NCBI RefSeq assembly: GCF_964355755.1
Contig: NC_092675.1
Coordinates: 16,154,912-16,218,911 of the forward strand
DNA length: 64,000 bases
Source: Antedon mediterranea
Taxonomy: Eukaryota > Animalia > Echinodermata
Direction of reading: 5' to 3'
Below are positions 33,216-59,090 of this stretch, one piece after another. The position numbers were made by a program, and so were the translations under genes. The notes below the pieces were generated by a model. That model saw only the letters and a list, made by a program, of their open reading frames with translations. It ran no database searches and was not told the origin of the DNA. The stretch's first letter is position 1. Each line of letters begins with the position of its first letter.

Positions 33216-33698
33216 CTGTATGAATTCGTCAAAATGCTGTTAGTGTTTGGCCTATCCAACTGACCGGTTACATTCTCCTGTGCCATGGGGTTAGTACTAC
33301 GGGGGTTGGTATGGGACATTGTAGCATTCCTTGACAATATTGTCGTGCTGGGCAAAACCTTTGCAGACCATCTAAATAAGTTAACCAATGTCCTGGGTAG
33401 ACTTAGGAATGCCAACTTTTAACTAAAACCTGTTGTACCGTCTGACTGAGAAGGGAGCCCAATTTGGAGAGGACCAGCAGGTCGCTTTTGAAACTCTCAA
33501 GAATGCAGTGGTTCAACCTCTTGACTTAACATGACCGAACACAAGTGATGAATTCATACTGGATGTAGATGTACCAGATCACGCCATCGGTGGTGAACTG
33601 CTGCAGGTACAAGAGGATAAGAAACAAGAAATCGCCTACGGTACCACCCGGTTTAACGCTGAACGTAACTACTGCACGACCCGTAAGTAGTTGCTGGC

Positions 33699-35137
33699 GG
33701 GTATTGCTAAACTGCGCAAACACTGCGCAAACACTTCGCAAACAACAAAAAAAGCTGCGCAAACCTCCTTCAAACCAATTAATATTTATTAGAACACAAC
33801 TAGAACTATATAGGGAGACAATTTATGGGAAAAAGAATTTGAAATTCCTTTAAATTTGCCTTTTTTTGGGTGAAAAACTTCAAATTTGGGAAAATTACTG
33901 ATTTCACAGCGCAAACCCCCCAAAAAAGCTGCGCAAACCTCCTTCAAACCAATTAATATTTATTAAAACACAACTAGACCTATATAGGGAGACAATTTAT
34001 GGGAAAACAAATTTGAAATTCCTTTATTAAAGTTTGCCTTTTTTTGGGTGAAAAACTTCAATTTTTGGGAAAATTACTGATTTCACAGCGCAAACAACAA
34101 AAAAAGCTGCGCAAACCTCCTTTAAATCAATTATTATTGATTAGAACACAACTAGAACTATATAGGGAGACAATTTATGAGAGAAAAAAATTGAAATTCC
34201 TATAAGTTTGCCTTTTTTGGGTTAAAAACTTCAATTTTTGGGAAAATTACTGATTTCACAGCGCAAACCACAACAAAAAGCTGCGGAAACCTCCTTTAAA
34301 TCAATTAATATTGATTAGATAACAACTAGACCTATATAGGGAGACAATTTATGGGAAAACAAATTTGAAATTCCTTTAAATTGCCTTTTTTTGGGTGAAA
34401 AACTGCAATTTTTGGGAAAATTACTGATTTCACAGCGCAAACCCCCTAAAAAAGCTGCGCAAACCTCATTCAAACCAATTAATATTTATTAGAACACAAC
34501 TAGAACTATATAGGGAGACATTTTATGGGGAAAAAAATTGAAATTGCTGTAAGTTTGCCTTTTTTTGGGTGAAAAACAGAAAATTACAGATTTCACAGAT
34601 TTACTGTAAAGGTTTGCGCAACTGCGCAACCTCAAAAAAAGCTGCGCAAACCTCCTTCAAATCAATTAATATTGATTAGATAACAACTAGAACTATATAG
34701 GGAGACAATTTATGGGAAAACAAATTTGAAATTCCTTTAAGCTTGCCTTTTTTTGGGTGAAAACTTCAATTTTTGGGAAAATTGAAGTTTTCACCCAAAA
34801 AAAGGCAAACTTAAAGGAATTTCAAATTTTTTTTCCCATAAATTGTCTCCCTATATAGGTCTAGTTGTGTTTTAATCAATATTAATTGATTTAAAAGAGG
34901 TTTGCGCAGCTTTTTTTGTTGTTTGCGCTGTGAAATCAGTAATTTTCCCAAAAATTGAAGTTTTTAACCCAAAATAGGCAAACTTAAAGGAATTTCAAAT
35001 TTTTTTTTCTCATAAATTGTCTCCCTATATAGTTCTAGTTGTGTTATAATCAATAATAATTGTTTTGAAGGAGGTTTGCGCAGCTTTTTTTGTTGTTTGC
35101 GCAGTTTGCGCAGTGTTTGCGCAGTTTAGCAATACCC
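33699..35137. mobile_element. Foldback/MULE-type non-autonomous element built of about 173-bp tandem units, 9-bp TSD
   Basis: TIR GGGTATTGCTAAACTGCGCAAACACTGCGCAAA and its complement; TSD GTTGCTGGC at 33690-33698 and 35138-35146; about six forward and two inverted units, switching orientation near 34780. Confidence 0.85.
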
Positions 35138-36987
35138 GTTGCTGGCCTTTTTGTGTAAGACCCAACCAGCAGTCTGACTTGGTTCCTGAATTTCAAGGAT
35201 TCTCAAGGGCAACTGGCTCATTGGATGGAGGATCTCAGCCAGTACACCATGATGGTAGTTGAACATCGAAAGTGAATTGTTTAGTTCTTTATGTAAAGTT
35301 TTACACATCCACAATCTGTAAATAGAAATGTATCCAAATCCACCTATGGAGATTAGCACAACCAATATCAGATTGACGCAGCAGCAGGTTGATGGGAAGT
35401 GGTGGTCCTTGGAGGAGCAAGAAGAAACGGACAGTGACTGCTTCAACGAGCGACTGCTCAACGCTGTACTGTACCACCACTATACCAACTGCGGAGGTCA
35501 GTGAAGACGTTGCCAGAGTGGAGACTGCCATTGGCCCGGAACCAGAGCACAAGCCATCAATCGCAGCAACATCTGACCAATAACCACAGAGGAAAAATCT
35601 GTGTGTGACTAGCTTGCGGTACATAACATGTGGAGGCATGTATGGGTGCAGCACCTTCCCACAAGACGCAGACCAAGCTGTACCTGCTGCGAAAAAATGC
35701 TACAGATTGAAATCATGGGGAGATCTGAGGCCATATATAGGCTGTATAGAGGAGATACATGTCATTGCCTTTGGCGAGATGCAGGGCTCGCAGAATCCTA
35801 AAATATTTGGTTGCCCATCGGGCAAGTAGGTTTTAGATTTTGGTTGCCCTCATCATTTTTTTACTTGCCCACTATTTTAACTTAATTTTAATGTTTTATA
35901 CCGCGACTGCACCGCGGAAAAACGTCGGTGAAAAACGCCTATGCTTAATACACTGTGGTGTTTTTTTCGATGGATTTTAAAGTAGTGAAAACAATTTTTC
36001 AAATTTTTTCAATTACACAGTGATGTAGGCCAATCTTTTAAGAACATTTTACAGTAATTTATTTTCTCATACGATCCTCCGTACAAGAGTTGCGATTGTT
36101 TAATTAACATGGTGTCCTGAAATCCCTTGAAAACGCTATGTTATTTCTGTTGGTTACGCTTCGTTGCACGGCATTGTTTGTCATCGATCGAAGATGTGTT
36201 CCGTTTCGTGAATGAAAAAGGCGTATTCACGTGGGTTTACTTTGGGAGCAAAAACGTTTTGCTTCTATTGTGCAATGAAATTCCGAAATCAAGCTATTTT
36301 GCGATATTTAAAATGTAGTGGCCTAGACATGGCACTAATTATCTTACAATTATTTAATAGATATATCTAAAATATTGCCTATAGAAATGTAGGCCTCCTA
36401 GGCCTAAAAAGTACTTATGAAGGTGATGAGCTTGTAACGCGTTGAAATCATAGAGAAGAAAAAAAAAACAAACATCAACTGACGTCCGTCTACGTGACGT
36501 GAAACAATACGCATGCGTATAGCAAAAAACCTCACAGCAGCTGCCGTAACGTAGTAGGAGCACATGGGTACGGTGTGTGGAGAGTGCGGGCTTGTGGAGG
36601 TTTGCTTGTTGTTTCAGTTGAAGCTCGCACAGGTTGGATAAAAACAACCATCTGCTCGCACAAGTTGGTGATTGAAAACAACACAAGGGAACTGTGCCGA
36701 ATTGTGGTGAAAACCACGTGCTCCGCCAAGTTGGAGTTTTTGAAAGTTCAACTCTCGGCGATACCCGAAGAAGTGTATTATTTTCAATGTTGATAATAAA
36801 AAATATACTGTAACTATTTAAGTATTCAATGTATTTATTAAATAAATTATTAGGCCTATTAAATTTATATTCTGTAATATTTATAAAAAAAATGGTAGGC
36901 CTACTTGCCTGTGTTAAAAACATCGGCCGCCGCCTATTTGGCACAGACTACACAAACCAACAGTGGTGTTGGTAGTCTATGAGTGCC

Positions 36988-37157
36988 GCTTACCTGGATA
37001 AACCAACATAAGCCTCTCTCTCCGACGAGAGGTAAACATTACGAAAAGAAGAACATTAATAACATTAATTTTTCCCCACCCCCGTCGGATAATGGATCAG
37101 TCCGCCACCAGTACGCCCTCAAGTGAGACACACCCACTTATCATCGTCATCATTTCT
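36988..37157. repeat. DIRS 3' inverted terminal repeat (with terminal extension 36945-36987)
   Basis: Reverse complement of 42126-42295 with no mismatch seen by eye. Confidence 0.93.
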
Positions 37158-37192
37158 CAAGACCACCTGCCTGAGGGGACGGTAGGGAGGGC

Positions 37193-37290
37193 GTTTATCC
37201 AGGTAAGCGGCACTCATAGACTACCAACACCACTGTTGGTTTGTGTAGTCTATATCGTGCCTAGCTTACCTGGATAAACCAACATAAGCC
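37193..37290. repeat. DIRS internal complementary region (circle-junction copy)
   Basis: First part complements 36945-37003; second part complements 42269-42312; the two overlap on GTCT. Confidence 0.93.
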
Positions 37291-37353
37291 AGTGTAGCAC
37301 CGGACTAGAGTCTAGTCGGAGGCGGGAGGCAAGGTAAACATTGTCATACATAC

Positions 37354-40293
37354 CTAGTGTCTGGGCTTCAAGATTGAAGCCGCCACCGTAGACTGGTTTG
37401 CGGAGGTATCCGACAGGTAGTGGGATGTGAAGGTGGACTGTGATCGCCACCATGCCGCTTGCAGGATGTCTGGAAGGGGCACCCCAGCAAACAGCGCCCA
37501 TGAAGCGGCTATGCCACGCACTTGGTGCATATGTGCCGGAGGAGGCGTATTTGTGGAGTCGTAACCAGCCCGGATGGCTGCCACGACCCAGTTTGCCAGC
37601 GTCGACCGAGCAGCCGGTCGGAAGGGTGCAACTGTCGATATGAACAGATGTGACGCTGAGACCCGAATGGACTCTGTGCGTTTGATGTAAAACTTTAGTG
37701 CCCGCACCGGGCACCAAAGTCTGTCTTCCTCAACCCCTGAATATGCAGCAATGGTGGGAATAAACACAGTCGGCGGCGAGAAGTTCAATGTCTGAGATTT
37801 TGCAAGGAAATCTTTCCTAAAAACCAACCGCGCGCCACCCCGTTCAAACCTGATGTGCCCTGGCTCCAGAGAAAGAGCATGCAGTTCACCTCTGCGCTTG
37901 CACGAGGCTAGTGCAATCAAAAAGGCAGTTTTGAGAGTCAGGTTGTAAAGTGATGCCCTACTCAGGGGCTCGAAGGGTGGACGCATAAGAGCGGCTAGGA
38001 CGACATTGACGTCCCAACGTGGAATCAGGGCCTTAGTAGGAGGCCGTTCTCGAAACATCCCGCGAAGCAAACTGGAAATTGCAGGGGATGAAGAGATGGT
38101 CGAGCCGTCTTTAAAATTCGGAATTACTGCAGCCAAGGCAGACCGATAGCCGGATACGGTGCGAACCTGCAGACCTGACTCAAACAGGTAATGTAGGAAA
38201 GCGCAGACCTGGCCCAAAGTCACTTTCATAGGGTCGGTCTTCTGGCGCTTGCACCATTCGAAAAAGTGTTTTAATCGGCTATTGTAGACAGCAAGAGTGG
38301 ATTCCCGTCGGGATTTCGCCGCGAGGGCGGCCGGACCATCTGGAATGCCTGAGTCTCTGAAACGATCCCTGACAATGGCCATACAGTCAGGTCGAGGGAT
38401 ATGAGGTTCGGTAGCGCAAACCGAGCTCGGCCCTGCGTCAGCAAGTCGTTCCGAATCGGAAGACGTAACGGCTGATCGTACAGAAGGCCCAGAAGCAGTG
38501 GAAACCACGGCTGCCTGGGCCAATACGGCGCTATTAGTAGGACTCGGCATTGATGGCGCTGAATGTGCGTCAGGACCAGTGGCAGTATTGAAATCGGTGG
38601 AAAGGCATATGCCCAAAGGTTGTCCCATGGTATGGACAGGGCATCCACCGCCCACGCATGTGCATCCCGATATCGACTGCAGAACGTCGGGAGCTGCGTG
38701 TTGCCTGACGTCGCAAACAGATCTACATGGGGCCGCCCAAAGTGGTTGAAGATCTGGGTGGCGATTATTGGAAGAAGGCGCCATTCCGTAGGACGTAGAA
38801 GTGGACGGGACAGTGCGTCCGCCACTATGTTCAGACGACCCGCAATGTGGGCCGCTGACAGTTGGATGTTGTGTCTTATACACCACATTAGCAACGTCCA
38901 CGTGTGGCAACATAGCGTGGGGGACCGTGTACCCCCTTGCCTGTTTATGTATGCCACGACGGTTGTGTTGTCGGAATTGACGAGAACATGGCGATTTGCC
39001 AGATGGGGAAGAAGAGCCTCCAATGAGCGCTCGACTGCCCAAAGTTCGAGCAGGTTGATGTGGGCGCGCGTCTCCTCGGGCGACCAGAGGCCGGAGACGC
39101 GAATGTCCGGAGACGGTATGTGACCGCCCCAGCCTACTTCGGATGCGTCCGTTTCCACACGGACATCCGGAATTGACCTTTGTATAGGTGTGCCCACAAG
39201 TAACCTGTCTTCCACGAGCCACCATTCGAGATGCGAGATGATGAACGCATTCGTTGGAACCACCTTGTGTAGAGAGTCTGATCTTGGGCGGTACGCTGCC
39301 AGAAGGTGCAGATGTAGAGGCCGCATCCTTAACCGGCAGAACGGAACGAGGGCGACGAAGCTGGCCAGTGACCCCAAGGTGCGTAGCCAGTCGTACGCCG
39401 TCGGAGCCTGAGCATTGATAAGATGTAGCACTGCAGTTCTTGCCTTGGCCACACGCTCGATGGATGGGCACGCACGGCCCGTAACCAAATTTATTTGGGC
39501 TCCGAGATACAGAGGGTTCTGAGAAGGGAGAAGACATGACTTCTCCTCGTTTATTATGAACCCTGCTTGTTCCGTCACGAGGCGGACAAAAGATAAGCTG
39601 CTCAGCAGCTGGTCCCTGGACTGGGCCACGATCAACCAATCGTCTAAGTACATGAACACTCTGATGCCGTGTTGATGAAAGAACGCCGCCAGGGTTCTCA
39701 CTAGACGAGTAAACACTCGTGGGGCCGTTGAGAGGCCGAACGGCAGAGCTACGAATTGGTATACCTGATCGTGAATGCGGAAGCGCAGCCAACTCTGGTG
39801 TTCTTGCGCAATAGGCACATGAAAGTACGCGTCTTTCAAGTCTATTGTGGCTGCCCAGTCCCCTCGTCTTAGCCCCAACAGGATAGATGAGACAGTCTCC
39901 ATCCTGAACCTGCGGGGCCGGATGTATTGCTTGTTCAGACTTTTGAGGTTTAGGATGGGTCGCCAATCGCCCGATTTTTTCTGGGCGAGGAAAACGGTGG
40001 ACTCGTGTCCCGGGATCGTAAGTTGTTCCTTTTGAACATGCACCACAGCTCCTTTCTGGAGCAGTGCTTCGAGGCCCGTCATGAGCGCTTGACTCTTTTC
40101 CGGCTCTGACGGAATCCTCGTGTGCCGGGCACCTCCGCTCACCGGAGGGCTCGAGAATTCGATACGATACCCGTGTGTCACGGTGGAGAGAACCCATCTG
40201 TCTGTGGTCAGGGTCTCCCAAACCCGTGAAAACCGTTTCAAGCGACCCCCCACCTGCCCGCCCTCGCTTGGAGGGACGGGCGTCCCCGGGCCG
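37354..40293 (-). CDS. DIRS tyrosine recombinase ORF (long N-terminal part overlaps the RT ORF)
   Basis: Catalytic residues KRRGEL (R), LAKSQ (K), HQVR (HxxR), WWRS, HY; LCPVRAL-like WCPVRAL. The frame is open up to the gag stop at 40294-40296. Confidence 0.92.
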   Translation of the reverse strand, partial: RPGDARPSKRGRAGGGSLETVFTGLGDPDHRQMGSLHRDTRVSYRILEPSGERRCPAHEDSVRAGKESSAHDGPRSTAPERSCGACSKGTTYDPGTRVHRFPRPEKIGRLATHPKPQKSEQAIHPAPQVQDGDCLIYPVGAKTRGLGSHNRLERRVLSCAYCARTPELAALPHSRSGIPIRSSAVRPLNGPTSVYSSSENPGGVLSSTRHQSVHVLRRLVDRGPVQGPAAEQLIFCPPRDGTSRVHNKRGEVMSSPFSEPSVSRSPNKFGYGPCVPIHRACGQGKNCSATSYQCSGSDGVRLATHLGVTGQLRRPRSVLPVKDAASTSAPSGSVPPKIRLSTQGGSNECVHHLASRMVARGRQVTCGHTYTKVNSGCPCGNGRIRSRLGRSHTVSGHSRLRPLVARGDARPHQPARTLGSRALIGGSSSPSGKSPCSRQFRQHNRRGIHKQARGYTVPHAMLPHVDVANVVYKTQHPTVSGPHCGSSEHSGGRTVPSTSTSYGMAPSSNNRHPDLQPLWAAPCRSVCDVRQHAAPDVLQSISGCTCVGGGCPVHTMGQPLGICLSTDFNTATGPDAHSAPSMPSPTNSAVLAQAAVVSTASGPSVRSAVTSSDSERLADAGPSSVCATEPHIPRPDCMAIVRDRFRDSGIPDGPAALAAKSRRESTLAVYNSRLKHFFEWCKRQKTDPMKVTLGQVCAFLHYLFESGLQVRTVSGYRSALAAVIPNFKDGSTISSSPAISSLLRGMFRERPPTKALIPRWDVNVVLAALMRPPFEPLSRASLYNLTLKTAFLIALASCKRRGELHALSLEPGHIRFERGGARLVFRKDFLAKSQTLNFSPPTVFIPTIAAYSGVEEDRLWCPVRALKFYIKRTESIRVSASHLFISTVAPFRPAARSTLANWVVAAIRAGYDSTNTPPPAHMHQVRGIAASWALFAGVPLPDILQAAWWRSQSTFTSHYLSDTSANQSTVAASILKPRH

Positions 40294-40304
40294 TCACCGG
40301 CGCT
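38271..40304 (-). CDS. DIRS reverse transcriptase / RNase H / adenine-methyltransferase-like ORF
   Basis: VGGRL, RPILNLK, IDLKDAYFH, LPFGL, YLDD; RNase H TDAS, INLLEL, SDN, ADALSR; MT-like DLFA, VDAL, YAFPP. The frame opens at 40304 with no AUG before the conserved N-terminus. Confidence 0.93.
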   Translation of the reverse strand, partial: SAGDGPGTPVPPSEGGQVGGRLKRFSRVWETLTTDRWVLSTVTHGYRIEFSSPPVSGGARHTRIPSEPEKSQALMTGLEALLQKGAVVHVQKEQLTIPGHESTVFLAQKKSGDWRPILNLKSLNKQYIRPRRFRMETVSSILLGLRRGDWAATIDLKDAYFHVPIAQEHQSWLRFRIHDQVYQFVALPFGLSTAPRVFTRLVRTLAAFFHQHGIRVFMYLDDWLIVAQSRDQLLSSLSFVRLVTEQAGFIINEEKSCLLPSQNPLYLGAQINLVTGRACPSIERVAKARTAVLHLINAQAPTAYDWLRTLGSLASFVALVPFCRLRMRPLHLHLLAAYRPRSDSLHKVVPTNAFIISHLEWWLVEDRLLVGTPIQRSIPDVRVETDASEVGWGGHIPSPDIRVSGLWSPEETRAHINLLELWAVERSLEALLPHLANRHVLVNSDNTTVVAYINRQGGTRSPTLCCHTWTLLMWCIRHNIQLSAAHIAGRLNIVADALSRPLLRPTEWRLLPIIATQIFNHFGRPHVDLFATSGNTQLPTFCSRYRDAHAWAVDALSIPWDNLWAYAFPPISILPLVLTHIQRHQCRVLLIAPYWPRQPWFPLLLGLLYDQPLRLPIRNDLLTQGRARFALPNLISLDLTVWPLSGIVSETQAFQMVRPPSRRNPDGNPLLLSTIAD
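40239..40296 (-). promoter_or_regulatory. Predicted translational recoding signal: UGA-CGG, 12-nt spacer, H-type pseudoknot
   Basis: Minus: TGA CGGCCCGGGGAC GCCCGTCCC TC CAAGCGA GGGCGGGC AGGTGGGGGG TCGCTTG; S1 GCCCG(U)CCC/GGGCGGGC, S2 CAAGCGA/UCGCUUG. Confidence 0.6.
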
Positions 40305-41823
40305 TCACATTATAATACCGGCGACCACTCCTGTTGGTGGCGCCTTTGCCACCCCTATTTCGCATTCCGCGAGGGGGGTGTGAAGCCTGTCTTGATGTAG
40401 AAGCCTGACTTTGCATAGGCTGAGCCGGTGGCGGCGGGGGAGGCTGCATCTGCTGAGGAGCAGCAGGGACAGGCGGCGGTCGTGCGGCTGTCCTTGAGCG
40501 TGAATTGCTAGCTCGGCGTTTTTGCGGGAAGCGCGCTCTTGTCTCCCGACGAGCTTCCCTCTCACGAGCCCATTTATCCTCCTTCTGTGAGAAGGAGCCA
40601 AAGAACAAGTCCTGCGCCCCGAAGGAGTCAGACGTAGTAAACCTACGGAAATCGGTCGGTGCGATGTCAGTTGCACCCAAGACGTTAACGCGACGGGCCG
40701 CGGCCGCAGATAATGAGATCGTTGCCTGTTGATCAACAACCAGGCCCATGATCTGCTGTAGTAGAGCTATCACGTCCGAATCGCCCTGGGGCGGATGTTC
40801 TGGATCAGCCAGAAAGGATAGCAAGTACCCGGCCATAGAGGCGGCTCTAAGCGTCTCGCGTGCGGCCCTGTCGACGGACGTAAGGACGTCCTCTGTCCGG
40901 GATTCCGAAGGCTTCAAAAAATTAGTCCTGGACGGGTCCAGGTTCTGGTCCTTACGGACCCGTTCCTTCGCTGCCTCCGGGACGCTCGGCGCCGCGATGT
41001 ACAGTTCGAATTGTTTCTGCGGCACCGGAAAAGCCGATGACAGGCTATAAGGCATAGGCCTACGAATCTTGGACTCTTTAGCGATCAGCTCCACACGTTC
41101 CACAAGTTCTGGATCGAGAGGCGTAACCGGGCACGAAGATACCTTCTTAAAGGGCGTGCGTACGCCAAAAGTGGAAAACCGCTTAGACGAAGGAGTATGC
41201 TTAGGCTCGCGATACGTGAAATCGACGCCGAGAAAGGACAGCACCGCGGGGACCGTCCGCATAACTAGCGCCTGCAGACCTTCCTCCCCTGGCCCGGCCT
41301 GCTCTCGTAAGCTATCTCTATCATCGTCAGAGAGCGAGGCCATCGTCCTGTCACTATCGTAATCCCTTTGCCGGACGGACGAACCATCGAAAAACGAGGT
41401 CTGCTGTGGGCCAACATCAATGTATGGAATATGGGGAGGAGGTCTAATCTGAGAGGGTACCTCAGGCTCATCCCTCGGCAGAGCTCTCACAGCTGCAACA
41501 ATGGCTTGCAGTAACCCCGGAGAAAACTCATTCACCCCCGGAACCGCAGAGGCCGCAGCCGGTGCAGGCATATCTGGAAGGCTAACTTCCGGCGCGACGA
41601 CAGGAGGGCCTGCCGTATCAACGGTACCCACCTCCGAAGGTGGTGCCGCTTCCGTGCGCTCTTTAGGCTTAGGGAGCGATTTGAACTTGGACGGTGTCCA
41701 GCGGACACAAACATCGCACGGCGACAACTCGGTACACGTGCGGCAATTTATACACTCCAAGTGGCGGTCCCACTTCACGGTAGAGCGGGGACCCCTACAT
41801 TTAATACAGTCCTGCTTAGGCAT
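40294..41823 (-). CDS. DIRS Gag-like ORF1
   Basis: 509-aa ORF at the element 5' end; N-terminal Cys/His cluster (CIKC..HLECINC..C...CDVC..W), RRxNVL..DLF motif, basic Arg/Gly/Pro-rich C-terminus. Confidence 0.85.
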   Translation of the reverse strand: MPKQDCIKCRGPRSTVKWDRHLECINCRTCTELSPCDVCVRWTPSKFKSLPKPKERTEAAPPSEVGTVDTAGPPVVAPEVSLPDMPAPAAASAVPGVNEFSPGLLQAIVAAVRALPRDEPEVPSQIRPPPHIPYIDVGPQQTSFFDGSSVRQRDYDSDRTMASLSDDDRDSLREQAGPGEEGLQALVMRTVPAVLSFLGVDFTYREPKHTPSSKRFSTFGVRTPFKKVSSCPVTPLDPELVERVELIAKESKIRRPMPYSLSSAFPVPQKQFELYIAAPSVPEAAKERVRKDQNLDPSRTNFLKPSESRTEDVLTSVDRAARETLRAASMAGYLLSFLADPEHPPQGDSDVIALLQQIMGLVVDQQATISLSAAAARRVNVLGATDIAPTDFRRFTTSDSFGAQDLFFGSFSQKEDKWAREREARRETRARFPQKRRASNSRSRTAARPPPVPAAPQQMQPPPPPPAQPMQSQASTSRQASHPPRGMRNRGGKGATNRSGRRYYNVKRR

Positions 41824-42125
41824 GGTGATCTAACAGACCTACTTTTCCCCACTAGCCTAACGAACAACAAAGATCTTCCAGTATTTCTATCCAGGTGAAA
41901 CACACTGGATAACGGCTTACAACGCTAAATTTTAACTCCTGGCAACCAGCCAAGGGTAACGATTCTAAACGTATCCACCACAAGATAACGATCTACTACA
42001 CTTAGCTTCGTTTTCTTGCTCTATTCTTCTCTTCCAGTCTACAGTATAAAGGTCTTTATCGCAAATTCCTCAGGAATTCCAGGAATGTGTTCAAAAAGAC
42101 GTACGTACACAACGACGTTACGAAA

Positions 42126-42295
42126 AGAAATGATGACGATGATAAGTGGGTGTGTCTCACTTGAGGGCGTACTGGTGGCGGACTGATCCATTATCCGACG
42201 GGGGTGGGGAAAAATTAATGTTATTAATGTTCTTCTTTTCGTAATGTTTACCTCTCGTCGGAGAGAGAGGCTTATGTTGGTTTATCCAGGTAAGC
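42126..42295. repeat. DIRS 5' inverted terminal repeat
   Basis: Reverse complement of 36988-37157. Confidence 0.93.
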
Positions 42296-44491
42296 TAGGC
42301 ACGATATAGACAATTAAAATTACGTATCTATTATAATTTAATAATATACTGTATTGTAGTTTGTACATTTGAACAATAATTACAGTAATTCAGCAAATTA
42401 TTTATTACACACAAAATACATAACATGAATGTAATTAAACATAGGCCTAATCTACTATCAGGCTGTAGGCCACATAATTAATACTAAGTAGTAGATTCAG
42501 ATTTTATTACCACCGTAAAATGATGTCGATAATTGAGAAAAACAAAAACCAAAAACATACTAGCCCCTATTTTATTTGGTTTATAGTATAACTAGGGAGT
42601 TGTTAATTAGAAACTCCCTGGTATAATAACTTCAAATAAGAGCCGAGAGTTCAACGCTTCCTATTTCGCGATCAATGGATGCCGCAAGAGACCGCGTGCT
42701 ATATGACAGACCTGGAAACTCTATACGCAACGACTTGATACGCCCGACTGCATAGAAACACGTGTTTTGGCTCCTGGAGATAACGTTCCATACCACCGAA
42801 TTCCGATCCATACATTTACTTAACAAACACTACACTGGTCTCGACGTCAAGAGAATTCGTTCGTGCGCGACTATTATTTTCATTGTTACAGTTTTTCACA
42901 ACCCCTGTAAAACATCGTGGACATTTTCGGTGATTTTAAGAGGTTGCCCGTCGGGACATGACATGTTAAATTTTAGTTGCCCGACGTATTTATTTGGTTG
43001 CCGCGGGACGTTGGGCAAGCGATTCTGCGAGCCCTGAGATGGGTACGATGCGAGGATTGGAGTACACCAAAGAAAGACATGCCTTCTGGCCAACTCTCCC
43101 GACTGTACTGAAGGCCTTGGTGCGCTCCAGTACTACCCGGGTGCTCTGGGAAATTGGCTTGACTACTCAATATCTGATTGATTGGTTTCCAGGAGATGTT
43201 TCGCTGCCTTCTCTTGCAGGGGTTCTCGTCAAGACATCACCTAGCAATCTGCCTGCACCTGAGAGGCAGCCGAAATTATTATTGCACTCAACAAAATTAC
43301 AACAACACACTCACTTAATTTTTTTTATTTTATTTTTTTTAAATTCAGAAATAAATACATTTTTAATTAGGCTAGGCCTAGACTAGCTTATTTACAAATA
43401 AGAAAATATCTATAACAAATGTAATATTAAAAAGTGATAGGCTAGGCCTAGGCCCGCCCAGGCTACCCTACATGCACTGGACACCAGCTCTCACTGGCTA
43501 GGCGTCCCATCTAGACCTCAAAAATCCTTCTTTATTGAGAGAGAGGCTAGCCGCTATAGCCTAGCTAGCACTCGCTCTAATTTTTGCAGTTACTTTAATA
43601 TATATCTGTATAAATTTTAACTTTAATCAACTAAAATGAGAATAAAGTACACATACCATTTAAATCAACAGTTATATTCATTTCGTAATAATATGAAATT
43701 GCAGTTTAAAGGATCAAAATAACACAAGCTTACTTGCTTCAAGTAGTCAAATCAGCCTGCAGTCACACGAAGAAGAAAGAGAAGTACAAAACAAACACAA
43801 CACGTCACACTATGGAACGCCATTACTGCCTTCTTTGGCTCTTTTACCATTCGGCTGGCTCTTTCAACATTTTATACGGCTCTTTCACCACTTTTACCAT
43901 TACGTTCGGCACTTTTACCAATTCATATGGCTCTTTTTCCATTTCATACGGCTCTTTCATCATTTCATACGGCTCTTTCATCGTTTGGTGCTTTTCTATT
44001 TAACCCTTTTACCATTTACGTTCAGTGCTTTCATCATTCAGTGCTTTTACCTTTCGGCCCTTTTCACGTCTCAACAAATATGACCCTTGACATCGGGTCA
44101 ACTGAGAAAATGTGACTGAAGGAGCCTAGTCAAACTTGCTCAAACTTGCCCAAGTACACGCGCGACACATCAAGTTCCTACGGTAAGAGGTTGTTTTAGT
44201 GTGGGTTCGAATGCCTTTAAAAATTACTATAATAGCAAAATCAAACATGTTTCTGGTTTTTCTCTCGAAGAAATTGACGAGAGCCTTATCGAAGAGGAAT
44301 TGAGAAATCTCAACCCATCTAAAAGTGTAGGCCTTGATCAGATTCCTGCAAAATTTCTTAGAGACGGAGCTCCTAATTTTAAAATACCAATAACACATAT
44401 AATTAACCTCTCCATTAAATACGAACGTATTCCCTCGGATTTTAAACTCGCAAAAGTCACGCCCCTTCATAAAAAGAATTCCAGAACTGAG

Positions 44492-46124
44492 CAGGCCCGT
44501 AGCCAGGGGGGGGTTTTATGGTTCGGGCGAACCCCCCCTTTATAGCGAACCCCCCTTAACCAACTGCGAACCCCCATCCCCGACATGCCCAATACCTCAC
44601 CCTCATCTCCAAAAATCCTCCAAATACGTGCCCCACAGTACAAAAAGTTGTTTGTAAATTGAAAAATTCGTAAACTTGTTCGTGAACCTTCTTCTCTGTA
44701 TGATGAGCGTCAACTAGTGATACGTGTCTGTAAATTTCTAAAAGCTTCAAATGAATTGCCGATTTTAACCTGAAAAATAAATGTTTGGTCCCTGCATGTA
44801 ACATGATCTGTTGACTGTTTATATGGCGTATATAAGACCTATTTTAGAATATGCTGCCCCTGTTTGGCATGGCGCTATCACTAAGGACATGTCCAAGTCT
44901 ATTGAAAAGGTACAAAAGAGAGCATTGCGTATCATGCTAGGTAACAACTATTTGTGCTATGATCATGCATTGTCTGTTACTGGTTTACCTACTCTTGTTG
45001 AGAGAAGAAACAAACTTGTGTTGCCTTTCGGGGAAGGCTTTTTAAAATCCGGTCTCTCAGAGTCAACCGCTTTCTAGAAGTACCTCATTGTAAAACCAGC
45101 AGACTTAGGTCGTCTCCAGTTCCCACCATGGTGGATATAATTAATAGGCACCACTAGCTTTTTTTTTGATATGTAATAAGTGAATGTTTTTAAGGTTTTT
45201 TATTCATGTATGTTTTTAACTCTATGGTACGATATCTAATTTTATTAAGATGTTTCTATTTTTATAGCAATTTTAACTAATTTTTAGTCATTTGTAATAC
45301 ATTTCATTTCAGTCCTTGACTGTCGTTTTGTAATATATTTTTATATACCGAATAAATTAAAAAAAATAAAAAACATGATATTGACGCGTCTCATAGCGAG
45401 CTGACGCACGAACGATTCGTACAAAGGACACCGCCAGACAACTGCGTACCTATAATTGTTTAGATCACTGGCAGTCAGGCAGCATGCATAAAGTATATTA
45501 TAGCCTTCCGACGTACATCAGTATTTATGTGCGACTATGAAGTATAATGTATCATAGAGGATTATAGTGAATATTAATATTTTACACTATAATATCTATG
45601 GTATCAAGTACTGTAGTTCACATTATGGCATCCGATTATTTTTTTCTAGACCACGCCGATACGTTCTAAAATGTATCAATATCACCTATTTACATATTTA
45701 TATTCCTCAACAAATTGCTGTAAATAAATATTATAGATAGAGCTAGCAAATAGCATTTGCCTTCACCCAGTGTGCTTTTTTCGGGGCTGCTCCTAGATAT
45801 ACGTTCGCATTGAACTTGAACGCAAACAAAATACGAAGTAAATGATCAAACAATCGGTGGTTCCGCACAGAGCACGCGCATCTAACATACGGCAACAAAT
45901 AGTTATCGTCATTTAAATTATCGACGTGTTTGAGGAGGAGGAAAAAAGTACGATCTTTTTGCTCATTGGTTATATAGCATGCTGCACGAGAGTGTCTTTT
46001 CCGGCCATCTAGGGTGTCATTTAACAAAATTCGCTTCGCATCAGGCTGGGGGAGGGGGGGGGGGGGGTTGACCCAAATATTTAGTGTCCGAACCCCCCCT
46101 TGACAGATCCTGGCTACGGCCCTG
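44492..46124. mobile_element. Non-autonomous TIR element with 5-bp TSD (hAT5-like)
   Basis: CAGGCCCGTAGCCAGG / CCTGGCTACGGCCCTG; TSD CTGAG at 44487-44491 and 46125-46129; subterminal CGAACCCCCC repeats. Confidence 0.85.
44808..45371 (+). mobile_element. Severely 5'-truncated LINE (RT C-terminus and 3' UTR) with 8-bp TSD
   Basis: YIRPILEYAAPVWH...IEKVQKRALRI; AATAAA and A-rich tail; AACATGAT at 44800-44807 and 45372-45379. Confidence 0.8.
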
Positions 46125-48322
46125 CTGAGGCTAATAATTACAGACCTATAAGCATTCTCTCCTCAGTTTCGAAAATTCTGGAGAAGGTGGTATATATACA
46201 AGTTTCCGATTACCTTGAAAGGAATCAACTTATCTACGATCATCAATCCGGTTTTCGTAGATCATTTTCTACCGACACATGTCTTATTCATCTTAGAGAT
46301 CACCTTAGAGTTCAAATGTCAAATGGTTTATTTACGGGTATGGTTTTACTCGATGTCCAAAAGGCCTTTGACTCGGTCAATCATGATATTTTGTGTAAAA
46401 AACTTAAGTATCTAGGATGCCGGTCTATCGGTTGGTTTCAAGCGTACCTGTCTGGGCGAAATCAGATTGTCGATATTAAAGGTACCAAATCGGACTCTAT
46501 TGAGATTGGATGTGGAGTCCCCCAGGGTAGCCTTTTGGGTCCTCTCTTGTTTCTTATTTACGTAAATGACCTACCATCTAGTATCGAAAGTGATTGTAAA
46601 GTTGTTTTGTACGCTGACGATTGTGCAATTTTTTACTCCCATAAAGATCCAATCTCAATCCAATCTAAACTCCAAAACAATCTCGTATCATGCAATAATT
46701 GGCTGATCGACAATCAACTTTCGCTTCATATGGGTAAGACCGAATGCATCCTGTTTGGTTCTAAACGTAGATTAAGCAAAGTGAACGAATTCTATATTGA
46801 TTGCTTTGGAACGACTATAAATGGATCAAAATCTATCAAATATCTAGGTATTGAGATTGACCAAAATGTATCAGGTGACGTCATTGCCCGCTCTGTTATA
46901 AACAAAGCAAACGGCAGACTGAAATTTCTGTACCGACAATCATCATTTCTTAATTCACATTGTCGCAAAATTCTTAGTTTTGCTTTAATCCAACCGATGT
47001 TCGATTATTCGGTTTGCTTATGGTCTTCTACGGTTAATAAAAATTTAAAATCAAAATTACAAACGACTCAAAACAAAATGGTTCGTTTTATAAAAAAGTT
47101 AGGTCCCCGATCTCATGTTGGTCAATCTCAGCTAAACGACGTTGGTATGTTAAAAGTCCAAGACCGTGTCGAATTTCTTAGAGTCTGTCATGTTTTTAAA
47201 ATATATAATCATTGTTGTCGACCTTATTTATGCAATCGCTTTATTAGAATTTCAGACAGTCATAATTACAATACTAGGGGATGCAATTTTAATTTTAGAA
47301 TCCCAACTATCAAGCCAATGGCACATGTGACCTTTTTTTACAATGCTATTAAAGAATGGAATAATTTACCAATTAACATTAAGGAATCACAAACTGTTTG
47401 TTGTTTTAAAAGTAAAGTTAAAAAGTATCTACAGGAACGTTCACTAGCTCTAGAAACTATTTAATAAGCGCTTCTTCTTTTTTCGATTGTCCTTTTTTGC
47501 TGTTTTTTGTAATTTTTATATGTTGCATTGTTTGTCTTTTTTGCTGTTCTTTCAAAGGACCTCATTGGAAACAAGTCCGTAGAGGACTTTTATGAGTTAT
47601 CCTTGGCATCCTTGTTTTATTTTGGTATTTTTATATTTGCCAATTTTAATTGTATGTCTGTGATATTTTATGTACTGATGCCGAAATAAATCAAATCAAA
47701 TCAAATTTCCACCCCACCCGCCACCAATAGGTGAAAAATTGTTCAACCAATCAAAACTTTTTCGGTTCGTGTGAATATATTCTATATCTTATACACTGTC
47801 TCTGTCTCTATAGGCCTAAACTGTTAGCGTAGTTTAGACCTATTGGAACGACCTGCATCGGACTCAATGTGCCGCGTGTGTACTTGGGCAAGTTTGAGAA
47901 AGTTAGACTAGGCTCCAGGCAGCAGTCACATTTTCTCATTTGACCCAATGTCAAGGGTCATATTTGTTGAGACGTAAAAAGGGCCGAAAGGTAAAAGCAC
48001 TGAATGATGAAAGCACCGAACGTAATGGTAAAAGGGTCAAATAGAAAAGCACCAACTGATTAAAGAACCGTATGAAATGATGAAAGAGCCGTGTGAAATG
48101 GTAAAAGAGCAGTATGAAATGGTAAAAGAGCCATATGAAATGGTAAAAGTGCCAAACGTAATGGTAAAAGTGCCGAACGTAATGGTGAAAGAGCCGTATA
48201 AAATGGTGAAAGTGCCAAATGGTAAAGGGCCGAATGGTAAAAGAGCCGAAGAAGGCAGTAACGGCGTTCCATATAACACTCGATCCTGTCTGTGGCTTGG
48301 TGGTTGGTGGTACGGAGTGGTG

Positions 48323-52860: not shown

Positions 52861-55816
52861 ATGAATAGCACGGACAAATCACCAGTGAAACCAAACCAAT
52901 GTCTAAGTTACAGAGCTGCAGGTCATGCACAGAGTCTTTTACAACAACTATGCATGTTGCATTCCGAAAAAACTTTCTGTGATGCTACTATCATAGTTGG
53001 TAGCCAGATTTTCACAGCTCATTGCGTCGTCTTGTCGGCATGTAGCCAATATTTTAAAGTGATGTTTTGTGGTGGATTGTTAGAGTCACTTTCAAAACAA
53101 GTAGAGCTTCATGGCGTTGAAGCTGCTGTGTTTGACAAATTACTAGAATTTATTTATACCGGTAATTTAGTTTGGTATTTTGCATAGTAAAAAGTATATT
53201 TGTAGTAAATTAATCAAATAGAAACAACATGATGATGGTATTATGTTTTAATAGAACCCCAAGGGTACACCTTTGGGACCTAAAATAATGTCCTCTAAAG
53301 AGTGGTATTCCCTGGATTAGGGTTGGCCCTGAATAGTGGTGTCTTCTGAATAGGGGTTGGCTGTGTGTTACAAAATACAAAACAAATTGCCGGTCATTTC
53401 ACAGAAAAGTTTCTACTGTATACTGTGTATCAATACACTTTATCGTCGTTAGACATACTCATGGGCCAATTTGTCTTTAAGTGGGCCAATGTAATTTAGT
53501 GCTGTTTTGAAGACTGTATAAAGCCACTACAGTCTAATTCATGAAAGCATATAGAAATTTGATATGAAAGTGAGCAGACAATATAAATCAATTTTAAGTA
53601 AACAGGTTTTTTGTTTTTGCAGGAGAAATTGATATTACATCTGAGAATGTTCAGGATTTATTATCAGCTGCAGATATGTTACAAATTCCAGAGATAATCC
53701 AAGCATGCTGTAACTTTCTTCGATCTCATCTACATCCTGCAAACTGTCTTGGTATCTACAAATTTGCATCCGCACGTTCATGCATTGAGCTGTGTGCAGC
53801 TTGCGATGTTTACACACATATGCACTTCTTACAAGTCATCCAACATGACGAATTCATTGAACTTGAGTGTACTGAACTCTTGGCACTTCTAAGCAGTGAG
53901 AAATTACGAATTGAAAATGAACTACAAGTCTTTAAAGCAGGTTTAAAATGGATTTTACATGATGCAACACAGAGAAAGAAATGTTTAGTTCAAATCTTAG
54001 ATCGTGTGCGATTCCCTATTATTTCATGTGAAGAATTATTTGATTACATTGAAACACATTGTACCAATCTTAATATCAAAGTTGCACTAGGTGCTTTATT
54101 AGCCGAATATAATCCTAAACGAAGGTTTAGGAAATCATCAAACCGACCGCCTACTTATAAAATGAAACCAAGATTAAGTGCACGTAAATACCTGTACGTG
54201 ATTGGTGGTTATAACCGTGAACCAGGTGGCTGTTGGAGTAACAACCAAACATTAGAAAGTGTTGATCGACTAGATTCATTTAATCGTGTTTGGAATTCTA
54301 AACCGAAACTAAATCATCCAAGAAGTTCTCACACTGTAGAAACACTCGACGGTGTAATATACGCAATCGGTGGCGAGGATGATTTGCTGTTGTATGACAG
54401 CGTCGAAGCGTTTGACCCACTTGAAGAGAAGTGGGTTATGAAATCGCCAATGACAGTGCCACGAAGCGGACATTGCTCGTGTGTCTTTGAAGGTGCAATA
54501 TATGTTTTTGGAGGGTGCATTGGAACTGAAATTGGCCAAACTATTGAGTACTACTGTCCGAAAAGACAAAAGTGGAGAGAATCTGGCAAAATGCTGTCTC
54601 CCCGTACCTCCTTTGGACTAATTGAAAGTGAAGGTAGTGTTATTTATCAGAAAAAAACATTTATACTATAGCTTGACAAATTAGTTTATTTACTTAATTA
54701 CAAAATTCATGTTGAGCAGCTGGCAAAGTGGGGGATTGGAGGATGAAGAAAAACAACTGATAATGGAAATCCATAGCTGTTCTTAAAATAAAGAAATCAA
54801 CAATTGCGCCTAAATCTGTTGAATAAGTTGCTATAAAGAATACGGTAATGAATAAAATAAAAAAAACCTCCTATTAAGGCACATTATTTATATTAATATA
54901 TTATTATTAATATACATGTACATATGTGGAAACTTTGTTGGGTCCCAAGTCAGTTCTTCTATATGAAGACACTTTTGGAAAAGCACTGAAATAATACAAA
55001 TATTAGACTTTATAATAATAATCATATTACTTTTTCACTTCAGGCCTCATCTATCTGTTTGGTGGAATGACTGCTGTAGGAGCAGAACTTAGAACGGCAG
55101 AGAGTTATAATCCTATCACCAAGGAAACGGCATCATTAGCAGATATGAGAAGCCGTCGGATAGGCTGTAGCGCTGTGGTGATTGATGACAATATATTTGT
55201 GGTTGGAGGATCCAATGCAAGGAAAGGTGCACTCAATACAGTTGAACAATATTCAATAATAAATGTAATTTATGTTTTGTTATTTTTTTTTTTTTAAATT
55301 TAAACCTGGAGCTACCCTTTAAGGTATATTATAGGGCTAAGTGCGTCCCACAGCTTAGCTAACAAATTTATTGATCTTATGTATTCTAGTAGAACAGTAT
55401 CATCTGATTGTGCAACTTTAGCACAGTGGGACTGAGAGTAAACTGAATGCAGCAAAAAATGTATTGGCTTGTGTTGATTTTTGTGTTCTGAAAACATTGA
55501 CAACTATCTGGCTGAAATGGTGCATGTCTTTTCCTGATGTAATGAAATACAATTTGACAGTTATAACTTCCAATTGTTCTTTACATAGGAAAAATGGACA
55601 ACACTACCATGTATGTCTACTGCACGTACTGGCGCCAGAACAGCAACTGTCAATGGCCTTCTGTATGTTGTTGGTGGTCGCACAGTAAATAGAGGATTTG
55701 GATCAGCAGTAACATTTCTGGATACGGTAGAATGTTATGACCCTCGAACTCAGTGTTGGACAAACCTTGATAAGATGTCTGTAGCTCGATGTGAAGCTGC
55801 TATTGCAGTCTTATAA
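52861..55816 (+). CDS. IPP: Actin-binding BTB-BACK-Kelch protein IPP (KLHL27), 4 coding exons
   Basis: Exons 52861-53161, 53623-54633, 55044-55264, 55589-55816. IPP-specific segments ARKYLYVIGGY..GG.WS, GTEIGQTIE, GAELRT, and C-terminus RCEAAIAVL. Confidence 0.9.
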
Positions 55817-57499: not shown

Positions 57500-58405
57500 T
57501 TACAATACAGTATACTGTATTTCAGCATTTTCTGGTACTGGTAGACATTTCTCAACAAAATTGTGGCACAACTCGATATACTGTTGAGGATGAAGTTTCA
57601 TGTGAGTGCAATGTCCAGAATCTGTCCAGCACTGCTCTTCTACCATTATCCCAAGTTTTCGTCTTTCAGCAATAACATCACCGATTGTAATATAATTACA
57701 AATGATATCGGCTTTGGAGTAGAGGTAAAGTTGAGGGTATCGACCACGATCTTTTTTCAAAGCAGAAATAAACGAGAATCCATAGCGAAATACTGCCCAT
57801 GCTGGTGGGTAGAAGAAAGATGCGATTATTCCCATTATAATAACAAAAGCATTGAAAATTCTTTTAAAGTTAAAAATTCCTCCTTTTGTATTTTCTGGGT
57901 TGGAGTAGAATCGCGACATAAATAGAACTTTCAAAGTTATAGGACTTGGGCAACTATCGTAAATGCAACCTTTTACTTGGAGCAAAGTGAGCTCTCCACT
58001 TTTATGATCATGCAGAATTTCAGTAATATGTCGATAGAGAAATCCTCCTCCATTACTGAATACGTGAAAAAATATGTTGCATTCCTCCAAACCAAATTCA
58101 AATAATAGTTCAAGAATTTTTTTAGCAGTTTCACGCAATTTTTCTCCCTGGAAAAATACTTGTTTGATGGGTGCTGTATAACGAATCGTACCATAACCTT
58201 TCTGCTGATAAATCGCACTATACTTTGCGAGATGTTTATCTAAGCAGCCAACCCAACCCAGAAGAATGACAACTGTCTCTCTGTTGCTGGTGGGGCTCTC
58301 TTCTTCTTGGCCATCACCACCAAAACCATCTTCTGGACCACATGATGGTACAGTCGGAGGAAAAACAATATGATACTCAAAATCTTCCGAATTATTTTCC
58401 TCCAT
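57500..58405 (-). CDS. TMEM53: Transmembrane protein 53 (DUF829 alpha/beta-hydrolase fold), single coding exon
   Basis: VVILLGWVGC.DKHLAKYSAIY, IRYTAP, FHVFSNGG, YDSCP, QLYLYSKAD, H..H..LHPQQY. Confidence 0.93.
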   Translation of the reverse strand: MEENNSEDFEYHIVFPPTVPSCGPEDGFGGDGQEEESPTSNRETVVILLGWVGCLDKHLAKYSAIYQQKGYGTIRYTAPIKQVFFQGEKLRETAKKILELLFEFGLEECNIFFHVFSNGGGFLYRHITEILHDHKSGELTLLQVKGCIYDSCPSPITLKVLFMSRFYSNPENTKGGIFNFKRIFNAFVIIMGIIASFFYPPAWAVFRYGFSFISALKKDRGRYPQLYLYSKADIICNYITIGDVIAERRKLGIMVEEQCWTDSGHCTHMKLHPQQYIELCHNFVEKCLPVPENAEIQYTVL

Positions 58406-59090
58406 GATGATAACCAGTTAACCTACAGAGCAGGCAAGGGAGGTACGCCCTATGTTTATAGAGTTTTCAATAAACTACACAACAAAAAAGCTAAGCCTGT
58501 CAAGGTCAATTTGCCGAAGAAAAGAAGCCGGGCGGACGTGACAAGCAGGAGGGTCAAACAACACCACCTTTTTGATGATCAATGAACCGTGATGATGAGG
58601 AGAGAGATTCTTTTTAGTAAACAATTCTGGTCTGCGCATGGTCACTGACCTCTGACCGATGGTGGCAACCGTCAACAAAAAACAACACGCCGATCGAGCT
58701 CTTCTTTCTCTCTCTAAAAACGGAAAGTAGTTTTTTAAAATGTGATAATTAAGCCTAGACAACTAAGAAAAAGATTTTGAATTGTATGTAGGCCTACAAC
58801 ATCCAACTGACATAGGTAAGGCATGTAGTATAGTTATATAGGCCTAGGCCTAGGCCCAAAAAAGAGCTATTTACTACCTACCTACTAGGTAGGCATAGAT
58901 AGCCTACTAGAGTAGGCCTACTAGGCTAGTACTAGCCTTGAGAGGGATCTAGAGAGGCCTAGCTAACTATAGCCTAGGCCTAGCTAGGCTAGTAGTAGTA
59001 GGCGCGGCCCAGAGGGCCTTATTAGCTAGACAAGTGACTATAGGCCTAGTGTAGTAGTAAGCCTAGGCTAGTAGTAGTATTACATAGCCT

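Follow-up and report, generated by a model that had tools for sequence, protein, structure and literature searches.

A single gag stop as a putative readthrough and frame-switch site in a DIRS1-type retrotransposon of Antedon mediterranea

How does a retrotransposon make a Gag-like protein, a reverse transcriptase (RT) and a tyrosine recombinase (YR) when the two enzymes lie in different frames behind one and the same stop codon? This question is raised by an element on the minus strand (36946..42311) of a 64,000-nucleotide stretch of DNA of the echinoderm Antedon mediterranea (NC_092675.1, positions 16,154,912 to 16,218,911), hereafter the window. It is a full-length DIRS1-type tyrosine-recombinase retrotransposon of about 5.37 kb, with GTC at both ends and three intact open reading frames (ORFs): a gag-like ORF, an RT-RNase H-methyltransferase ORF and a YR ORF (Table 1). 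We propose that its single gag stop is a switch with three outcomes, termination, readthrough and a +1 slip, a reading towards which the comparison of related sequences tips the balance slightly. Most ribosomes would terminate at the gag UGA and yield Gag. Some would read through in frame, giving a Gag-linker-recombinase of about 1490 residues, and some would slip by +1 at or beside the stop, giving a Gag-RT-RNase H-methyltransferase. The 2-kb overlap of RT and YR could then be the passage for readthrough ribosomes toward the recombinase domain.

The layout of the junction agrees with the original prediction for this DNA. On the minus strand, the gag ATG lies at 41823 and the gag tail reads AAG CGC CGG TGA, with the stop at 40296-40294 and CGG as the next codon. 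The 1490 codons from 41823 to 37354 contain stops solely at codons 510 and 1490, and the YR ORF is thus in the frame of gag with one internal stop, as had been claimed. An AUG at codon 33 past the gag stop in the YR frame is an addition to the earlier description. The RT frame is +1 relative to gag and begins 11 nt ahead of the gag stop, at 40304. Residue 75 is its first Met, which lies 56 codons beyond the conserved GGRL start, and the absence of an AUG before VGGRL is therefore confirmed. A UGA at 40307-40305 closes the RT frame upstream, so that entry into it in this element is confined to 40304-40251 (about 57 nt). This makes the element a good test case. That this UGA could be a private mutation was ruled out, as it is unchanged in the main contigs of two organisms. 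The segment 40080-40480 is identical in a high-depth contig of the same organism, which may be the source of the window DNA itself. Judged by these contigs, the gag-stop junction is no private mutation. A 9-bp hairpin is predicted at 40325-40293 (minus strand), with the gag UGA in its 3' arm.

Readthrough of the gag stop into the recombinase frame

The original prediction had named UGA-CGG as the type II readthrough context, and PMC3542737 bears this out. The determinants given there are UGA-C, UGA followed by CGG or CUA, and two 5' adenosines, and the UGA-CGG of the window fits the type II pattern. To place the junction among its relatives, we used a metagenome scan that gave 436 related stretches, of which the best 80 were kept. 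Without the four that had no RT N-terminus, 76 remained, and these and the window were each scored for the frame of the long upstream ORF ending within 200 nt of GGRL. Two layouts were defined: type A has gag, one stop, YR in frame and RT at +1, and type B has gag, one stop and RT in frame. Type A accounts for 55 of the 77 sequences including the window. The predicted frame relationship is thus kept in 54 of 76 relatives among the best 80 of the 436 stretches. For statistics, the elements were collapsed at 65% RT identity to 43 (37 type A, 6 type B), and their terminal stops, at the ends of the RT and YR ORFs (n=56), served as controls.

The gag stops of the 43 elements are UGA in 29, UAG in 13 and UAA in 1. 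UGA-C is found at 20/43 gag stops and 0/56 terminal stops (p 2e-9), a result that upholds the expected conservation of this context, and UAA at 1/43 versus 12/56 (p 0.006); these p-values are too small because the elements are related, and the shared ancestry, which makes them overstate independence, counts against our reading. UGA-CUA occurs at 7/43 gag stops versus none of the 56 terminal stops, and UGA followed by either CGG or CUA at 9/43 versus 0/56. The codon preceding the gag stop is CAA in 11 elements (1.0 expected from gag-tail codon usage) and AAA in 6 (1.3 expected), and two 5' adenosines precede 17/43 gag stops versus 0/24 YR stops. The stop contexts vary and recur over a quick tree of 72 rows. 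Taken together, the gag stop looks selected for leakiness.

The frame behind the stop points in the same direction. Along the first 600 codons of RT, no stop interrupts the YR frame in 30/31 elements, for which synonymous shuffles expect about 23 stops. The in-frame extension thus appears to be under selection, as type II readthrough requires. In 10/37 elements the first YR-frame AUG lies more than 100 codons past the gag stop, and the 2744 codons upstream of it in these ten elements are all open, with about 105 stops expected. Readthrough explains this open stretch without AUG, and an own AUG cannot. The alternative would be that YR is made from its own AUG or its own RNA, the gag stop being an ordinary one and the junction features by-products of overlapping coding. 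This would agree with the presence of a YR-frame AUG within 85 codons in 26/36 elements, such as that of the window. However, it leaves unexplained not only the AUG-less open codons but also the enrichment of UGA-C and 5' AA and the avoidance of UAA, and we regard it as quite improbable. Readthrough of the gag stop into YR is, on this comparative evidence, likely, and this part of the originally predicted three products stands, supported by stop identity, 5' and 3' context and the AUG-less open YR frame. A protein search for a longer Gag-fusion protein found none, which is weak evidence.

Entry into the reverse transcriptase frame

The segment between the gag stop and VGGRL is a linker of variable length. 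In the 37 type A elements it contains 0 RT-frame stops in 599 codons, for an expectation of 22.6 by base shuffling or 6.9 by codon-order shuffling (P 0.001), and over all 55 type A sequences there is 1 stop for 11.9 expected. The third frame of the linker holds 27 stops versus 30 expected. Upstream, the last 40 gag codons hold 5 RT-frame stops versus 6.7 expected, that is, no depletion. The RT frame thus tolerates stops ahead of the gag stop and not behind it, which suggests that RT-frame ribosomes probably cross the whole linker. The RT ORF lacks an own start and is open across the gag stop, as expected for a +1-shifted ORF2, with the two exceptions given below. RT-frame AUGs upstream occur at chance rate (19 versus 16.8) and are missing altogether in 13/37 elements. 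Entry into the RT frame at or beside the gag stop is thereby supported indirectly. In reporters, weak stops feed the 0, +1 and -1 frames, and the P-site codon sets the +1 share (PMC9841425). Antizyme-type P-site codons (UCC, CCC, UUU, GUU; list from PMC1874602, Table 1) precede the stop in 9/37 type A elements versus 4.1 expected (p 0.018). We lean, by a small measure, towards a ribosomal +1 shift at or beside the stop as the route into RT. Two other candidate signs of a shift were rejected. A UUU-CGN motif occurs in some gag tails only and is absent from the window, and the +1 overlap ahead of the gag stop, usually about 250 nt, is as long as expected by chance given the amino acids of the gag tail (median 251 versus 251 nt). 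In type B it is equally long.

Could RT come from a spliced RNA instead, with a donor in gag and an acceptor at the junction, while Gag-YR is made by readthrough? An example is the phase-0 pair GAG/GT at 41632/41631 and CAG/GTG at 40254/40253, whose donor scores highest in the gag of the window and is compatible in phase. By scoring matrices that are approximations, junction acceptors score a little higher than background (median percentile 0.64, p 0.047), but the best acceptor of the window is ordinary, at the 57th percentile, and the CAG of the pair has no pyrimidine tract. Moreover, acceptor position and phase vary among elements, donors are not enriched, a sister family apparently has GAG in place of CAG, and an acceptor at VGGRL would not keep RT-frame stops out of the linker. 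No match to the candidate intron was found among the contig joints listed, which derive from contigs, not RNA. We therefore consider splicing unlikely.

An equally unlikely route is that RT has a new start close to the gag stop, through reinitiation, from a non-AUG codon or from a promoter at the junction, again with Gag-YR made by readthrough. This would also account for an RT frame open from the stop onward and would suit the window, which has no shift-prone P-site codon, and a junction promoter has a precedent in Tca2 (PMC2194720). It does not fit with the AUG-less upstream RT frames just mentioned or with the lack of a conserved near-cognate start, the V codon being GTG in 15, GTA in 11, GTT in 4 and GTC in 3 elements (n=33), and in related families RT is made fused to Gag.

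It is far less probable still that the RNA itself is changed, the stop being removed by A-to-I editing (UAG or UGA to Trp) or the polymerase slipping in the G run of VGG. UAA avoidance fits with editing, and the window's UGA lies within the predicted 9-bp hairpin, but 29/43 stops are UGA, which is a poor ADAR context. As to slippage, the first Gly codon is GGG more often than expected (20 versus 10.5), and indels in the G run distinguish two sister-family contigs, but 18/37 elements have no G run longer than 3, and slippage there would not account for a linker free of RT-frame stops.

Would an RNA structure assist the proposed +1 shift and readthrough? The H-type pseudoknot of the original prediction can be formed at the places given there. 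Stem S1 pairs 40281-40273 with 40263-40256, starting 12 nt past the stop, and S2 pairs 40270-40264 with 40245-40239 after a 10-nt linker. The S1 hairpin alone has a folding z of -4.3, for a stretch hand-picked by eye, and the whole 55 nt a z of -0.98 with pseudoknots left out; in a crude H-type energy scan, the score of the window was matched by 2/150 dinucleotide shuffles. In L002, L007 and L009, the segment behind the stop can form strong stems with the GGRL codons. Close families were compared by eye, from contigs and 30-letter loose ends only. In a family about 95% identical (organism B), the S2 pair 40268:40241 changes from A-U to G-U and the terminal S2 pair is broken, with no further change listed from 40240 to 40317. 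A sister family apparently keeps UGA-C, an 8-pair S1 and a G-C at 40268:40241, and in a further one the S1 5' arm is retained and the loop differs. These close families give better hints of a kept structure than distant relatives, which do not share the pseudoknot. The two sister contigs with indels in the G run before GRL would have RT in frame with the stop, and one of them, with further indels and a rearrangement, may be defective. An Rfam search gave nothing above noise. The pseudoknot is plausible as a clade-local structure, not as a general DIRS1 feature, and the support from sister families is partial. On these predictions, the chances that a downstream stem or pseudoknot stimulates recoding in the element's clade are about even.

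Several observations weigh against the proposed switch. A pseudoknot was found in 13/43 elements by a loose scan. The test of own versus swapped pairing partners gave p 0.001 (36/43 elements), but p was 0.008 for one of the six control pairings. Around the stop, the folding z of -1.1 to -1.2 is little below values elsewhere (-0.4 to -1.06). UAG-G is not enriched at gag stops (7/43 versus 9/56). The P-site codon of the window, CGG, allows no +1 re-pairing and is outside the antizyme table, and because of it we do not count the window in the shifty-stop +1 frameshift class. Neither 5' AA nor an antizyme-type codon is present in 12/37 type A elements, and no shared slippery motif was found among the relatives. 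L041 has an RT-frame stop 73 nt past the gag stop, and L013 has one 18 nt before GGRL. For the RT product of the original prediction, entry at or next to the gag stop, behind which RT-frame stops vanish, has indirect support, with CGG, L041 and L013 speaking against a +1 shift there. In addition, 6/77 sequences are type B, and 16/77 belong to neither class (truncated, broken or different). Finally, the junction of Candida Tca2, with its UGA and predicted pseudoknot, directed no readthrough in yeast reporters and held a cryptic promoter (PMC2194720).

Fusion ORFs speak for the switch. In L023 (1446-6326), gag and YR form one 1626-codon ORF with RT at +1, in a single contig that may be a mutated copy. 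In a second collection of 15 loci, 6 loci of one distant family have gag and RT in a single ORF; 5 loci show no junction, 3 are type A and 1 has gag in the third frame, all 3 close-group loci with a visible junction being type A. The distant-family loci (L087, L089-L093) have gag-RT ORFs of 1212-1274 codons on contigs filed under bacterial metagenome-assembled genomes, likely as eukaryotic contamination. In a separate clade (L026, L038, L039, L042, L057), the YR frame opens 130-300 nt past GGRL and the frame of gag is variable; this clade may be expressed by a different route. Type B elements stand at 6 separate places on the quick tree, and their linkers hold 0 YR-frame stops versus 1.0-2.1 expected. 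No canonical -1 heptamer is shared among them. DIRS1 elements occur widely, with hosts among animals, fungi and amoebae. It is conceivable, with chances just short of even, that one weak gag stop serves three essential proteins throughout the DIRS1 superfamily, the two enzymes swapping frames by a single indel.

The element and its surroundings

The element is an intact DIRS1 retrotransposon present in multiple copies, since public contigs join many different flanks to it at 36949 and 42312. Its inverted termini have 170-nt arms that are 100% complementary, the left arm pairing with 36988-37157. The terminal triplet is GTC, and that usual for DIRS1 is NTT (PMC3266345). The nearest protein relatives are about 51% identical, and the three named ones are from echinoderms. 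No relative of the element was found in viral contigs. The gag-like ORF1 has no Pfam match and owes its name to its position. The RT ORF matches RVT_1 (E 7e-23, above the cut-off) and RT_RNaseH (E 0.004). Its putative methyltransferase region has no Pfam match and 0 hits in a PDB search, and Dam was found in 3/53 aligned relatives; it contains VDLFA and YAFPP, candidate methyltransferase motifs. The recombinase domain begins at about residue 660, in the last third of the YR ORF. Four phage-integrase Pfam families match there with E 4e-4 to 0.016, all below their curated cut-offs, and the catalytic motifs R, HxxR and H/Y are present.

Table 1. Features of the element, in positions of the window.
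Feature	Position	Strand	Description
Left inverted terminal repeat	42126..42311	-	170-nt arm complementary to 36988-37157; 43-nt end complementary to the internal complementary region
Gag-like ORF1	40294..41823	-	509 aa, Cys-rich N-terminus, R/G/P-rich tail, single UGA
AUG-UGA in RT frame	40305..40310	-	Not part of the original prediction
RT-RNase H-methyltransferase ORF	38271..40304	-	677 codons in the +1 frame; no AUG ahead of VGGRL
CGG-UGA-CGG, leaky-type gag stop	40291..40299	-	Putative readthrough and frame-switch site; sequence, context and conservation statistics
YR ORF	37354..40293	-	979 codons in the gag frame, of which about 620 overlap RT
Stem S1 hairpin	40256..40281	-	5' arm GCCCGUCC kept in two sister families (contig loose ends)
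Predicted pseudoknot stem S2	40239..40270	-	3' arm formed by the G-R-L codons of RT
Internal complementary region (ICR)	37193..37290	-	Complementary to both termini; GAC circle junction
Right inverted terminal repeat and extension	36946..37157	-	Repeat analysis

Elsewhere in the window, 33698-35138 is an array of repeats of about 174 nt, arranged as two blocks of opposite orientation between the arms of a perfect 35-nt inverted repeat; it may be a foldback or satellite-bearing element. LINE-like fragments are located at 46085-47461 (+), 5047-6027 (-) and 8784-9728 (-), the first two matching RVT_1 and the third no Pfam family. Long host exons are seen at 53598-54668 (+), for a BTB-BACK-Kelch protein, and at 57503-58417 (-), for a DUF829 protein. 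A 21-nt tandem repeat at 43842-43986 has open frames on the plus strand.

Comparison with known recoding systems

The element shares with described DIRS1-like retrotransposons (PMC3266345, PMC7192593) the inverted terminal repeats, the ICR, the three ORFs, the RT and RNase H, followed by a putative methyltransferase, and the long RT/YR overlap. In the available text of these two papers, the overlap is given without a translation route for ORF2 and ORF3. What is documented here beyond them is a conserved single stop of leaky type, with both frames open behind it. A literature search, which missed some specialist reviews and supplements, found no claim of readthrough or frameshifting in DIRS elements. 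The available portions of PMC7192593, PMC3266345, PMC5633606, PMC5941688, PMC8547959, PMC6681497, PMC9210276, PMC3950715, bioRxiv 10.1101/2021.04.08.439009 and PMC5009743 treat the RT/YR overlap without a recoding model. The proposed conserved expression switch is probably unreported before, built from known parts and in a known family. If it is real, it would be a natural system depending on both readthrough and frameshifting at one stop, with the competing outcomes all used and the enzyme-to-Gag ratios set at one codon. It would also explain the 2-kb dual-coding overlap of DIRS1 elements.

Each part of the proposed switch resembles a known system. As in the antizyme +1 frameshift with its 3' pseudoknot (PMC1874602, PMC9841425), ORF2 would be entered in +1 at the stop of ORF1, and antizyme P-site codons are over-represented in the element's relatives. 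In contrast, antizyme leaves the 0 frame unused, and the P-site codon of the window is CGG. Candida Tca2 (PMC2194720) also has a retrotransposon gag UGA followed by a predicted pseudoknot, but it is a long terminal repeat (LTR) element with one downstream ORF. The type II readthrough of alphaviruses and tobraviruses, with UGA-CGG or UGA-CUA and a 3' stem, has the UGA-CGG context in common with the element, and gammaretroviral gag-pol readthrough with its pseudoknot the C-terminal extension of Gag (both PMC3542737). In these systems, and by prediction in the element, the downstream structure starts 8-12 nt after the stop, and with a UGA and a compact predicted pseudoknot the element would mix type II and type III traits. 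Unlike the systems described there, the readthrough product of the element would be a recombinase and not a polymerase, and a second essential ORF opens at the same stop in the +1 frame.

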